From: an uncultured archaeon
GTDB taxonomy: Archaea; Thermoplasmatota; Penumbrarchaeia; JASLWR01
DNA length: 33,847 nucleotides
Assembly (NCBI GenBank): GCA_964342815.1
Contig: CAYFHS010000022.1
Coordinates: 1-33,847 of the forward strand
Direction: 5' to 3'
The position numbers and the translations under genes are program-made. Below are positions 17,034 through 30,580 of the stretch, piece after piece. How positions within the stretch are numbered: the first letter of the stretch is position 1; the number at the start of each line of letters is the position of its first letter. The notes under the pieces were generated by a model. That model did no database searches and was not told the origin of the DNA. It saw only the letters and a program-made list of their open reading frames with translations.

Positions 17034-17705
17034 ATGGTTATACCCTCGGCAGCACCACTCCTGCTTGAAAAGGACAATCATCTTTATAGTCTGAATATGG
17101 TCAGGGGAATTTCGGTATACAATGAAGAATTGATTGAGATCGGAGGGGAGGAATACCGAAGCTTTACTCCTAAAAGATCGAAGCTTGCGGCAGTGATAAA
17201 GAAGGGAATCACACCCGATATATTGGAGAACGCTAAGATGCTTTATCTCGGCGCGGCCAATGGGACCACGGTGAGTCACATAAGCGACCTGATGCCGGAC
17301 GGAAAGATATTTGCTGTGGAAATATCGTCTAGAACGTTTAGAGACCTCCTGGAACTCGCGAAATCACGACCGAATATCTTCCCGATCCTTGCCGATGCAA
17401 TGAAGCCTGAAACATACCGTTACATTGTGGACCACGTGGATATCATCTATCAGGATATCGCCCAGAAAGGGCAGGCGGCGATCTTTCTTGCGAACGCGAA
17501 AAGTTATCTCAAGAAGAACGGGATCGCCTATCTGATGGTAAAGGCGAACTGTATCGATTCAACTAAGAAAGCCGATTTGATTTATCGTGAAATAAGAACG
17601 CAGATGACCAGCGCAGGATTCCTGATAAGAAATGCCTTAGAACTGGATCCCTATCAAAAAGATCACATGGCGTTCATAATGAAGGAGAACGGGCTGCAAC
17701 GGTAG
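17034..17705 (+). CDS. flpA: Fibrillarin-like rRNA/tRNA 2'-O-methyltransferase
   Basis: RSKLAA, LYLGAANGTTVSHISD, YQDIAQ and LDPYQKDH motifs. Confidence 0.96.
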   Translation: MVIPSAAPLLLEKDNHLYSLNMVRGISVYNEELIEIGGEEYRSFTPKRSKLAAVIKKGITPDILENAKMLYLGAANGTTVSHISDLMPDGKIFAVEISSRTFRDLLELAKSRPNIFPILADAMKPETYRYIVDHVDIIYQDIAQKGQAAIFLANAKSYLKKNGIAYLMVKANCIDSTKKADLIYREIRTQMTSAGFLIRNALELDPYQKDHMAFIMKENGLQR

Positions 17706-20700: not shown

Positions 20701-21075
20701 TTCGGACCTGATAAGAAGAAACCTGGAAACTGGATGCTATTGGTAGAAGATGAAAATGATGTGAAGTTCGTCTCTAGAGGTTTTACGAAGGACGATCTGG
20801 ATAATATGAGCAATGTTACCGTCGAAGATCATGAAACAAGGAATGAAGATTCTATTCCCGATCTGAGCATAATGCAGGGTAATCCTCCTCCAGGGCAGGG
20901 AGCCAATAAAAAGTCCGGAAACTCGAAATCCCGAAGTGGACTGGAACACCCCCCCCTCGATAAAGAACTTAATACTGCCAAACTTTTTTCTACTGCAAGC
21001 CTGATACTTTTTTATGTATTCGGTCTAATCTTATTCATAGGAGGACGAGTGAACCGAAAATACAGCAATCAGTAG
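17785..21075 (+). CDS. Large GT-C-fold membrane glycosyltransferase-like protein (ArnT/PMT-like) with inserted beta-sandwich domains and two C-terminal OB-like repeats
   Basis: TM1 followed by KDEEGFY (acidic loop-1 motif); HWPPGPS; more than 10 TM helices; RYYSPMIPP; two roughly 95-aa repeats beginning LLENPLGYKGKKV and LLEKPEDFNGKRL. Confidence 0.7.
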   Translation: MLNSITTFIRQIIKPNPRRMINRQRVILVLFIVFIAVTIYIRGFEHGIEGGKPHLKDEEGFYGWAELYTEGYYSIPLQEARGTYHYDTVFTTKSENKTTELTTNIGSFDAVGKDNDLKIELLYVNGTPVFNANVSIKLKGGLSGGVASNNTDENGTCILYNIPMGIVPLEIIIPRDDDVPLVMQTMIDSKSKGGRYNIFATVEVEQLTYESLGTSIKVERIINGTAEPLLRAKINVNGQFIGETNIAGELYLNSSDSDHAFVRIRPSTGELKGMQVSLGALQEITDDKGAVLFAVENQYELTVLVEDIFGSPVSDVDISVDPNPQTKEIIDSTGADGQIKFQMKLKEGEHRLVAHKDVDGYIPPLASGVAVVDGEYHYVNHWPPGPSVVISWLIYVGAEDFFGLIVVIILSFSTWGVARRIFGWKVAAIATFLSMTCGITLQLYFGQWMGDLSSTAFAMGGFWLFLISVKLWKNSRNRDGINGKENWSIGNDNIAWEEESPKIDSNGVVRNGNTIMGKWIQPISLALVAGILFGSSVTMRYSTLVACFMPYIYFLGLSIREASGQRKVFLKKFFSKRSLGSWLGIIIPLTIGMIIIGSMLMCYNAKYFGGPMNSGYQAQNIRAVINTDTSGNQSLESYESPNTFFESYFIWGEDDKENAPYIFQYILIFVPIFFLSIPALWLLRKEPLMYSLFAWIILTFVIYLSQGWVLKRTIEDIRYYSPMIPPCAILGGSMLVRMGRGGAWRNPGRISKIITTGITSIVVILLLVATVTAGNYAIEERMEKSKRSQPQGGMNEPLTIKEVPIPRLLENPLGYKGKKVTVTHGIVDQIMDSGKGLTLIRDEREPEKKILVSPVDPIQGIELDMRIEATGTFLPPQNSSGYWQVIVERAGDLKKGEIITINITIKSLLEKPEDFNGKRLKVIHAVVERIINQEKGIALIRDYKFPDKKIVLNPTGPIPGVVAGARLEAFGRFGPDKKKPGNWMLLVEDENDVKFVSRGFTKDDLDNMSNVTVEDHETRNEDSIPDLSIMQGNPPPGQGANKKSGNSKSRSGLEHPPLDKELNTAKLFSTASLILFYVFGLILFIGGRVNRKYSNQ

Positions 21076-21452
21076 AGACACCAGGGTTAGCGAACCAGTC
21101 CTGTGAAGACACACCTCACCGCGTACACTTCGTCTTGAAACATCTGAGATGCCGCTTACGCTACGTTGAATCAGAGATTCAACTGCATCCTTGGCATGTT
21201 TGCCTATGGATGTTTCTATCCCTGCCCGCAAGTTTGCTGACAGGCTACGCAACACCTTCTAGGCGTTGCTGGGCCTGTAGTCATACTTGACGAATGCGCA
21301 GTTGGATTCCAAATCCAACGGAATGCAATGGGCGCCCTCGGTATGTATACCTGCGGACGTGTCACTCTGGACAAGTAATGACTTGTCAAGTATCTGGACT
21401 CGGTAGAACAGTGTATCTCGATTGAATCGAATGATTCGGTCCCATTATGGGC
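21076..21452. ncRNA. Candidate large structured non-coding RNA, family unassigned, strand uncertain (minus favoured by the promoter)
   Basis: No credible ORF; hand count of 188 G+C in 375 nt (50%) versus 89 in 290 nt (31%) in the next spacer; 10 or more hand-verified helices, a multibranch junction and a long-range closing helix (see findings). Confidence 0.65.
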
Positions 21453-21548
21453 TTACAAACCGCCAAGGTTTCTCAATTCCTTTAACAGGGAGATCTCATC
21501 CTCGGTAAGGAATAATCCCCGCAGTTGCATTTGTTCGTCTTCTTCCAT
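21453..21548 (-). CDS. Small 31-aa ORF MEEDEQMQLRGLFLTEDEISLLKELRNLGGL
   Basis: ATG preceded by purine-rich AAGGGGG at SD-like spacing; amphipathic-looking helix; below the size cutoff of the ORF track. Confidence 0.45.
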   Translation of the reverse strand: MEEDEQMQLRGLFLTEDEISLLKELRNLGGL

Positions 21549-21642
21549 TTGTCAAACCCCCTTGAATGACACGGGAACGTGCTCATGGAAAGCAAATTCC
21601 CTGAAACTTTTTCAGTTTCTGAGAAAAAATACCGATTATTCC

Positions 21643-21654
21643 TTATTTAAATAA
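21643..21654 (-). promoter_or_regulatory. Palindromic TATA-like box TTATTTAAATAA, plausibly driving a minus-strand transcript from about 21620
   Basis: TTTAAATA core with purine-rich sequence upstream on the minus strand; the nearest plus-strand start is about 250 nt away. Confidence 0.4.
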
Positions 21655-21896
21655 TCTCTCTCGACTACTATGAGTGATTATCATTTCCGAGAATGACCTG
21701 ATTTTGATAGATTTTTCACTGGTCCGAGAACACATTTGTCCTTTCCAATTAAGAAATCATAAACAAAGTTCCAGCAAAACACCATCACTGTGGGAAAAAA
21801 TAAAGAATATTAAATATTCAAAGCATCTTTACAGCCTTTTTGAAATAACAAATTTCAAATTGATATATTTTCAGAGGTGTAGGAGGAAGATAGTTA

Positions 21897-23060
21897 ATGG
21901 GTCACAAATATGCTGTTATAGGAGTCGGGCGTCAGGGAACTGCAGCTGCCTATGATATGGGTAAGTTTGGAGACGCGGACGATATTATCCTCGTTGACTC
22001 ACAGGAGGGTATTGCTGAAAAAGCGGCAAAGAGAATAAATGAACTGCTCACCCGTGATGTCGCGAGGGGGCTGTGTGTCGATATAGTGGAAATGGACAAA
22101 CTGAAGACATTGCTTCAGGGAACAACATCCTTCCTTTCCGCCGCTCCCTATAGATACAATCTCCAACTTACGGAACTCGCCATCTCGATCGGATCGAATA
22201 TGTGTGACCTCGGTGGTAATACTGAGATCGTAAGAAAACAGCTTGCTTATAATACGGAAGCGCTGAAGGCAGGGATAACAATCGTTCCCGACTGCGGGAT
22301 GGGACCCGGAATGAACATTTCACTTGCCATGTATGCCATTTCTCTTATGGATAAAGCAAAAGAGGTTTTAATCTGGGACGGGGGACTTCCACTGGAACCG
22401 AAACCGCCCTGGAATTATCTATTGACCTTTGCATTCAACGGATTGGCTAATGAATATTATGGCAATGCGTATTTCCTGCGTAATGGAAAGGTTACCGAGG
22501 TAGAGTGTTTTGACGGATTCGAGGAACTGGAATTTTCGCCTCCCCTGGGTCGACTCGAGGCTTTTGTAACCTCGGGGGGTCTATCAACGGCTCCTTGGAC
22601 ACTGGAGGGAAATCTCGAGCGACTCGAGAACAAAACACTCCGTTATCCGGGTCACTGGGCACAGTTCAGGGCCTTCCGTCAGCTTGGCCTCCTATCGTTG
22701 GATCCGGTTGATGTAGGGGGTACCGAGCTTATTCCACGGAATGTACTGTGTGCATTATTGGAGCCAAAGATTGTCCGACCTAAAATAAAAGATATATGCG
22801 TGATACTGGTAAAATGTGTAGGAGAAAAGAAAGGGGAAAAAACAGAGGTATATGTCGAACTAGTGGATCTCTATGATGAAAGGACCGGTTTTACAGCAAT
22901 GCAGCGCATAACGGGATGGCATGCTTCCATCATAGCCATACTAGCCGCCAAGGAAAGAATGGCTCCCGGGGCGATCCCCGTGGAAATAGCGGTCCCAGGT
23001 ATTACAATGGTTCAGGAAGCGAGGAAGAGAGGTTTGAAGGTAAAAGAACGTTTCGAATAA
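21897..23060 (+). CDS. Saccharopine dehydrogenase / lysine 6-dehydrogenase-family oxidoreductase
   Basis: VIGVGRQG Rossmann motif, DLGG, PDCGMGPG, GGLP..PKPPWNY, TSGGLST, KTLRYPGH and TAMQRITG; SD AGGAGG. Confidence 0.9.
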   Translation: MGHKYAVIGVGRQGTAAAYDMGKFGDADDIILVDSQEGIAEKAAKRINELLTRDVARGLCVDIVEMDKLKTLLQGTTSFLSAAPYRYNLQLTELAISIGSNMCDLGGNTEIVRKQLAYNTEALKAGITIVPDCGMGPGMNISLAMYAISLMDKAKEVLIWDGGLPLEPKPPWNYLLTFAFNGLANEYYGNAYFLRNGKVTEVECFDGFEELEFSPPLGRLEAFVTSGGLSTAPWTLEGNLERLENKTLRYPGHWAQFRAFRQLGLLSLDPVDVGGTELIPRNVLCALLEPKIVRPKIKDICVILVKCVGEKKGEKTEVYVELVDLYDERTGFTAMQRITGWHASIIAILAAKERMAPGAIPVEIAVPGITMVQEARKRGLKVKERFE

Positions 23061-30353: not shown

Positions 30354-30580
30354 AAATCATCGGATTGTTCAGTTTAAACATTCGGATGCAACGCAAATTG
30401 AAAAGTGGACAATAGTTACGGTAATGTTCCAATACTTGATTAGTAAAGACATACCTGATGGCATATCACACTTTCAAGCCAAGCCAGTGGGTGATGATGA
30501 ACATAGTTCATCGAACCCTAATAGAATCTCTGATTCTATGTCGGGACTTGGCTTTTCAAGAAAAGCAAGAAGGCGACAAA

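Follow-up and report, generated by a model that had tools for sequence, protein, structure and literature searches.

Positions 21103-21392 of the analysed DNA (hereafter the window, a stretch of 33,847 nt from an uncultured marine archaeon) are probably a long mosaic copy of a lineage-specific, non-coding and non-autonomous mobile element composed of hairpin modules. The hairpin family to which this copy belongs is most likely selfish mobile DNA. The initial annotation had read 21076-21452 as a candidate for one discrete structured RNA of 310-375 nt, and this reading is not supported, in view of a multi-copy, modular family and an empty syntenic site in a congener. The fold is real and non-coding, but the object is not a unique structured RNA gene.

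The genome of the source archaeon (G000; assembly 89% complete), whose population is present in oxygen-minimum-zone samples, was compared with those of a congener (G001), a member of a sister genus (G003), and a representative of a third genus in the family (G002). Model R1, a covariance model built on the 55-nt two-hairpin core of the repeat family, was used for the family searches.

Genomic setting and folding of the segment

The stretch 21076-21452 is flanked by a 1096-codon surface-type ORF (plus strand, end at 21075) and a saccharopine-dehydrogenase-like gene (start at 21897). The element begins 27 nt past the stop codon of the 1096-codon ORF, and the stop codon of a minus-strand 31-codon ORF is located about 60 nt from it, which places the element between two convergent 3′ ends. 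The GC content was 0.51 over 21100-21399 compared to 0.30-0.34 over 21600-21899, confirming the contrast to the adjacent spacer that had been reported. Elsewhere in the window, a fibrillarin gene was observed at 17034-17705, which marks the DNA as archaeal, and genomes of relatives are labelled as Thermoplasmatota MAGs.

The 377-nt stretch folded better than 100 of 100 dinucleotide shuffles on both strands, with z values of -3.64 (plus) and -4.58 (minus), so the claim of a stronger fold than expected was upheld. The element alone, folded as minus-strand ssDNA, gave a z value of -5.55. All pairings listed in the initial annotation exist, except that the partner of ACAGGC (21240-45) is 21273-78 instead of 21274-79. 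Rfam returned nothing at the gathering score in the whole window and nothing at E ≤ 10 inside 21076-21452, in agreement with the earlier failure to match any described RNA family.

A decayed protein-coding gene or a chance hairpin-rich spacer is an extremely unlikely explanation. ORFs of 43-74 codons do overlap the region; however, none of these short ORFs gave a Pfam match at E ≤ 0.1, and the earlier statement that no credible ORF is present still holds. Furthermore, the indels among paralogues follow hairpin modules and not codons, the folding lies beyond all shuffles, and the stems of the family covary.

The hairpin repeat family and its minimal unit

A BLAST search against the own genome detected partial paralogues on contigs C1, C8, C27, and C49 with 83-90% identity. 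The C1 copy (90714-90860) aligned with window 21246-21392 at 85%, and the C27 and C49 copies aligned with 21129-21276 at 83-86%. In the C8 copy, the window pieces 21103-51, 21209-75, and 21332-92 run contiguously, so that this copy corresponds to the window copy with two internal blocks removed. The 3′ module is carried by many additional short BLAST matches in G000. Model R1 had 55 matches in G000, 58 in G001, 14 in G003, and none in G002; the 3′ end of the window copy was matched at 21341-21393 (E = 2e-7), and a second match in the window covers 30443-30481. Among the best 40 matches in G000, 27 were intergenic and 13 were located within ORFs of 150 codons or more, 7 of them in the orientation of the ORF and 6 against it. 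As read from translations, the copies on C1 and C8 adjoin ribosomal-protein genes. Hairpin-dense stretches of this genome between rpl37e and a peptidase gene, upstream of rpl40e, and upstream of a K+ channel gene have modules in common with the window copy and are most simply explained as further members of one family. The second, short family member of the window (Table 1) was observed between ORFs of 1256 and 573 codons.

The distribution of the family is narrow. When the 21-mer of hairpin 2 was searched for exact matches in 185,579 species genomes, only two Thermoplasmatota/archaeal MAGs and one Enterococcus MAG were found, and the latter match is taken to be chance. The element had no match in phage and plasmid collections. 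A metagenome search with the same 21-mer returned only a G001-type population. Read assembly from four DNA runs yielded only short contigs, which belonged to the population of the source archaeon and to the paralogues, and none had a joint across the element. In one X3 contig, C27-like modules are joined to the left flank, most likely through an assembly path induced by the repeats.

The minimal unit comprises 51 nt: GTRAAG, hairpin 1, ACACWG, hairpin 2 (GACAAGT-GGTG-ACTTGTC), and AA. Hairpin 1 has a stem of 5 bp followed by 2 bp, with a conserved mismatch (C.C or A.C) between the two parts, and a loop of 4-5 nt. It starts on the last base of the 5′ GTRAAG, while hairpin 2 stops 2 nt before the end of the unit, and a GTRAAG-like 6-mer follows directly in the flank. 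The two ends of the unit are not inverted copies of each other, and the consensus foot of the family hairpins is GTAAAG/CAAG. Unit sizes within the family range from 51 to 301 nt.

Module composition of the window copy

The window copy has the same ends as the minimal unit, with about 240 nt of extra hairpin modules between the two arms of hairpin 1 (Table 1). In such long copies, the extra modules are carried in the loop of hairpin 1 and in those of other modules. The multibranch appearance of the fold results from this nesting of modules within the loops of others.

Table 1. Features in and around the hairpin element of the window.
Feature	Coordinates	Strand	Remarks
Left flank, 5′ arm of the proposed closing helix	21094-21101	.	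Not element; beyond homology with all paralogues
Probable long (~290 nt) mosaic copy of the hairpin repeat family	21103-21392	+	Starts GTGAAG; ends with hairpin 2 and CAAGTA
Module A	21103-21136	+	5′ end GTGAAG; 5′ arm of family hairpin 1 (GACAC-A-CC, 21108-21115); AAGAC/GTCTT pairing
Module B	21137-21216	+	Stem GAAACATC/GATGTTTC around hairpins 21165-83 and 21193-204
Modules C and D	21217-21275	+	C: hairpin of CCTG..CAGG/CCGCA..TGCGG type, degenerate in the window copy
Stem of Module D	21249-21269	+	Hairpin-1-like, GCAAC-A-CC / GG-C-GTTGC
Module E (optional)	21276-21331	+	8-bp hairpin 21301-19
Module F	21332-21392	+	Internal-loop hairpin CC-UC-GG / CC-UGC-GG (21334-59); hairpin-1 3′ arm GTGTC (21359-63); hairpin 2 GACAAGT-AATG-ACTTGTC (21370-87); CAAG end
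Conserved DNA just downstream of the 31-codon ORF	21396-21452	-	Closing-helix 3′ arm; AGTGTA (21410-15); hairpins 21418-30 and 21441-51; 87% identical to G001
31-codon ORF (MEEDEQMQLRGLFLTEDEISLLKELRNLGGL)	21548-21453	-	Intact in G001 with 5 amino-acid changes; no Pfam match
Second, short family member (hairpin 1 and variant second module)	30443-30490	+	R1 28.8 bits, E = 1e-6

Each module recurs in other copies in its own combination. Module A is common to the C8 copy and to three G001 copies (L010, L017, and L021). The stem of Module B, as GAAACATC/GATGTTyC, closes a loop of only 3 nt in C8, C20, and at least five G001 copies; therefore, the inner 57 nt of this module are optional. This optional block is flanked by a GATG repeat. 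Modules C and D form a conserved 86-nt backbone that is identical at four G001 loci. The C1 copy has Module E, which is flanked by a short direct repeat, and the C8 copy lacks it; a related hairpin with a changed stem was found at C23:38267-38328. Module F is the part of the family that is most widely shared.

Arrays in which other hairpin modules alternate with the two-hairpin core were also observed in G000 at C16:42376-42760, C9:92950-93130, and C18:31246-31400, bounded by GTAAAG...CTTTAC motifs. These arrays suggest that the family is part of a wider superfamily whose modules can be interchanged. In the G001-type population, the 51-nt unit is also contained in a repeat that is about 800 nt long and has at least three copies (L112:2750-3560, also L117, L121, L100, L101, L110, L116, and L119); the ORFs of this repeat (108-145 codons) have no Pfam matches.

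Several parts of the proposed single fold turned out to lie outside the element. Both arms of the closing helix (21094-21101 with 21396-21404) do pair, but they are flanking DNA. The hairpins at 21418-30 and 21441-51 exist and are located in conserved flank. The possible pseudoknot between TACACT and AGTGTA can likewise form, with a 3′ partner (21410-15) that is flanking DNA. The right flank from 21396 onward is conserved in G001, where the element is absent.

Covariation of stems and conserved unpaired features

The first five pairs of hairpin 1 occur as GGTGA/TCACC, GACAC/GTGTC, GGCGA/TCGCC, and GGCAC/GTGCC, while the C.C or A.C mismatch is kept at the sixth position. Among 13 copies, 93.8% of the hairpin-1 cells were paired, compared to 19-45% in slid registers, and none of 500 shuffles reached the observed covariation. 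In an alignment of seven long copies, covarying pairs were detected in the hairpins 21165-83 (three), 21193-204 (one), and 21249-69 (two). Hairpin 21165-83 differs from the copy G001:C70 by three compensatory pairs, and two pairs of the Module D stem were changed on both sides. However, the long-range helices GAAACATC/GATGTTTC and GATGC/GCATC were invariant in the seven long copies. Thus, the covariation that the initial annotation had looked to among homologs is found in several local hairpins kept by compensatory change, and not in the long-range helices. Together with the differing subsets of modules held by the paralogues, helices that either lack covariation or consist of flanking DNA argue against one discrete RNA.

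Unpaired features are conserved as well. An internal loop of the type CC-UC-GG / CC-URC-GG recurs within the window copy, at 21186-21212 and 21334-21359. This recurring loop and the conserved mismatch show that some single-stranded form is recognised, which could be ssDNA or RNA. The stem mismatches by strand type were 5 G.T versus 9 A.C, without a preference, in keeping with the mixed strand evidence that had been noted before.

These data bear on the view that the family consists of genuine structured non-coding RNA genes or modules, such as protein-binding sRNAs with optional domains, in which case the window copy would be one functional RNA and the spread of copies would be secondary. This view fits the conservation of the mismatch and of the internal loop beside covarying stems, the highly significant folding, the 86-nt backbone kept without change at four G001 loci, and the position of the C1 and C8 copies next to ribosomal-protein genes. 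Against it, protein-coding ORFs contain about one third of the best core matches, in either orientation, and for those copies an independent RNA gene is implausible. In addition, the window copy and at least four others are missing from the orthologous sites of close relatives, G.U-type and A.C-type stem mismatches show no strand bias, no Rfam relative exists, and covariation is lacking in the long-range helices of the single fold that had been proposed. RNA genes are therefore considered quite unlikely, and the mobile element is preferred.

A DGR template/variable repeat was ruled out, as the mismatches between paralogues are not adenine-specific.

Presence and absence among relatives

On one contig, G001 carries orthologues of both flanking genes, the proteins being 74% and 81% identical. 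The DNA between the two genes matches that of the window at 87% identity from 21395 to about 21700, whereas 21102-21394 is missing; the empty site reads ..TTGTCC^GGACTCG... Loss of synteny in G002 and G003 leaves the window copy without an outgroup that would polarise insertion versus deletion.

The C3 copy (62514-62568) is an exact in-frame insertion of 17 codons, or 51 nt (STDTSDGVSNWTSSDLS), in a 1441-codon surface-protein ORF. This insertion is missing from the orthologues in both G001 and G003 and is thus polarised by an outgroup. At three of its copies, G001 has an insertion of exactly 51 nt that G000 lacks. In total, five filled/empty pairs with contiguous empty sites were found, of which one is outgroup-polarised. 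The four translated insertion sites are all in large surface-type proteins. In the 51-nt insertion differences, filled sites have the GTRAAG-like 6-mer at either end of the unit, whereas empty sites have it a single time, a pattern that fits either a 6-bp duplication or a target together with the element's own end.

At none of the loci compared between G000 and G001 was the same insertion shared, and the unit is near-identical in three genomes. This combination marks a mobile family that is active or was so until recently. The spacer that contains the window copy in G000 was observed to contain, in G001, a separate solo hairpin-1 copy at a different place (L028:4812-4851, on G001:C131), which indicates independent turnover of the family within one spacer. 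The G001 spacer before the dehydrogenase gene is also about 320 nt longer than that in the window.

The same comparison bears on whether the repeat was exapted in cis as a bidirectional transcript-end structure, that is, a stabiliser or terminator situated where the surface-protein gene and the 31-codon ORF converge; such a role has been proposed for REP/BIME elements in bacteria. The convergent 3′ ends at 27 nt and about 60 nt past the stops, the strong fold on both strands, and the intergenic location of 27 of the 40 best matches agree with such a role. However, G001 lacks the element and still has both genes together with the conserved flank of the ORF, so the element is dispensable at this locus, and no oligo-T tract of the archaeal terminator type is present next to it. 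We regard a cis role as very unlikely to be the explanation of the element. For a mobile element, any effects on neighbouring genes, such as transcript 3′-end stabilisation or termination, would be secondary, as with bacterial REP elements.

The 31-codon ORF beside the element

The 31-codon ORF and about 150 nt upstream of it, with conservation reaching to about 21700, are 87-100% identical to G001 DNA. By comparison, the flanking proteins are only 74% and 81% identical at the amino-acid level. The region 21453-21700 on the minus strand is, on the basis of this conservation, a candidate small-protein gene or regulatory RNA. A TTTAAATA box was observed upstream of the ORF, near 21646-53.

Possible relationship to Y1 transposases

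The element may move as single-stranded DNA by means of an IS200/IS605-type Y1 (HUH) transposase acting in trans. The hairpins with the conserved mismatch would then serve as recognition sites of the transposase, and CTTYAC, the reverse complement of GTRAAG, would be both the cleavage and the target site. Provided that the family is a mobile element, we give Y1-mediated single-strand transposition roughly even odds on the available sequences.

Genes with a Y1_Tnp domain (PF01797) were found in G001 (two full and three fragments) and G003 (one) and were absent from G002, which matches the distribution of the element among these genomes. One of the G001 proteins, of 155 residues, is encoded on G001:C65. 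An IS200-like unit with conserved ends and a 163-residue Y1 transposase is present at L095:1405-1896 (G001:C158) and L094:1465-1956 (G003:C1), with orthologous Y1 genes at non-syntenic sites in two genera. This unit starts right after TTTAC and ends in GTTTAC, and the reverse complement of the family GTAAAG is CTTTAC. Its left end carries the hairpin CCAGNGCC-TTTA-GGCNCTGG, and its right end carries the hairpin CCAGCTCC-TTTA-GGGGCTGG. Only the terminal TTTAC is held in common with the family; the hairpins differ in both sequence and spacing.

Neither a Y1 transposase nor TnpB was detected in the G000 assembly (89% complete), and tblastn of the G001 Y1 proteins against G000 gave weak fragments only. 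A site at C44:2208-2395 in G000 weakly resembles the G001 Y1 transposase at both the DNA level (69%) and the protein level and may be a decayed IS200 remnant. No family members occur within 1.5 kb of Y1 genes in G001 or G003. In G000, the stretches between paired family ends are about 300 nt long at most (the longest spans 301 nt), so no autonomous parent was found there. The initial annotation had named multi-copy hits flanking transposases as the mark of a mobile-element relic; the multiple copies were found, but no copy was found beside a transposase gene.

Two considerations weigh against a simple IS200/IS605 passenger. The 6-nt GTRAAG direct repeat may represent a genuine duplication of the target site, and this would speak against the mechanism. 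To our knowledge, IS200/IS605 elements make no target-site duplication. Moreover, compensatory upkeep of internal hairpins would not obviously be needed by a passive passenger and would fit an RNA role equally well.

Comparison with known repeat systems

Among described archaeal elements, the palindrome-associated transposable elements (PATEs) of Haloquadratum walsbyi are derived from IS200/IS605-type transposons, have 52-bp terminal-only forms produced by repeat-mediated core deletion, show nested insertions, and are mobile even where an intact IS200 transposase was not assembled (PMC3119063). The present family resembles them in being archaeal, non-coding, and below transposase-coding length, and in having near-terminal palindromes without terminal inverted repeats. 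In both, long heterogeneous forms occur beside terminal-only forms of about 50 nt, copies are nested, insertions are strain- or species-specific, and mobility is indicated even for genomes in which an intact IS200 transposase is missing from the assembly. However, no sequence similarity was found, and the host of the family belongs to the Thermoplasmatota. Unlike PATEs, the family has no parent IS200/IS605 transposon that could be found, and its terminal palindromes do not resemble those of an IS200/IS605 transposon in the same genome. Its unit is flanked by the 6-nt GTRAAG repeat, while PATEs cause no target duplication, and its extra modules are located inside the loop of one terminal hairpin and not between two terminal palindromes.

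The REP/BIME/REPIN elements of Proteobacteria are mobilised by RAYT Y1 transposases (PMC3733652). They share with the family short imperfect palindromes, a conserved flanking oligonucleotide, mosaic arrays, and a mostly intergenic location, often at convergent 3′ ends. The Y1 HUH enzyme family is also present in carrier genomes, here G001 and G003, with none found in G000. In contrast to REP and REPIN elements, the foot of the family is GTAAAG/CAAG and a GTAG or CGTC tag is absent. No single-copy RAYT flanked by family hairpins was found, as G000 yielded none and the Y1 genes of the relatives are unflanked; these genes look like ordinary, non-syntenic mobile IS200 copies, unlike RAYTs. Many family copies are, furthermore, within ORFs, which differs from REP elements.

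Rickettsia palindromic elements (RPEs) are repeats that enter protein-coding genes of unrelated kinds in-frame, and their translation adds a peptide segment to the product (reviewed in PMC10969869). The family unit is likewise inserted in-frame into protein genes, but RPEs are about 150 bp long, bacterial, and unrelated in sequence, compared to a unit of 51 nt (17 codons). A further difference from RPEs is that all four translated family sites are in the large surface-type proteins. No description of a palindromic unit inserting in-frame into protein genes outside bacteria was found in the literature. Finally, omega-RNA and HEARO resemble the element as structured, transposon-linked non-coding sequences with a conserved 3′ hairpin, whereas the element has no Rfam match and a TnpB or IscB-type gene was found neither in the G000 assembly nor beside any copy.

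Significance

The element is probably a new member of the palindromic mobile repeats, and as such of an ordinary kind, and not a novel large RNA. A more ambitious reading, which we consider rather unlikely, would make the hairpins, through their conserved mismatch and recurring internal loop, recognition modules of a dedicated protein, serving as the substrate of single-strand transposition and, once transcribed, as RNA modules in the form of 3′-end stabilisers or processed sRNAs. The 17-codon in-frame inserts would then be recurrent new peptide segments in the surface proteins of marine Thermoplasmatota, and the family would be to archaea what RPEs are to Rickettsia, but mobilised by a new chemistry.

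Repeats of this family break assemblies and imitate RNA genes in structure-based screens. The family provides a clean archaeal example of a 51-nt palindromic unit that inserts in-frame into protein genes. Furthermore, the element and its candidate enzyme form a testable pairing for single-strand transposition in uncultured marine Thermoplasmatota.
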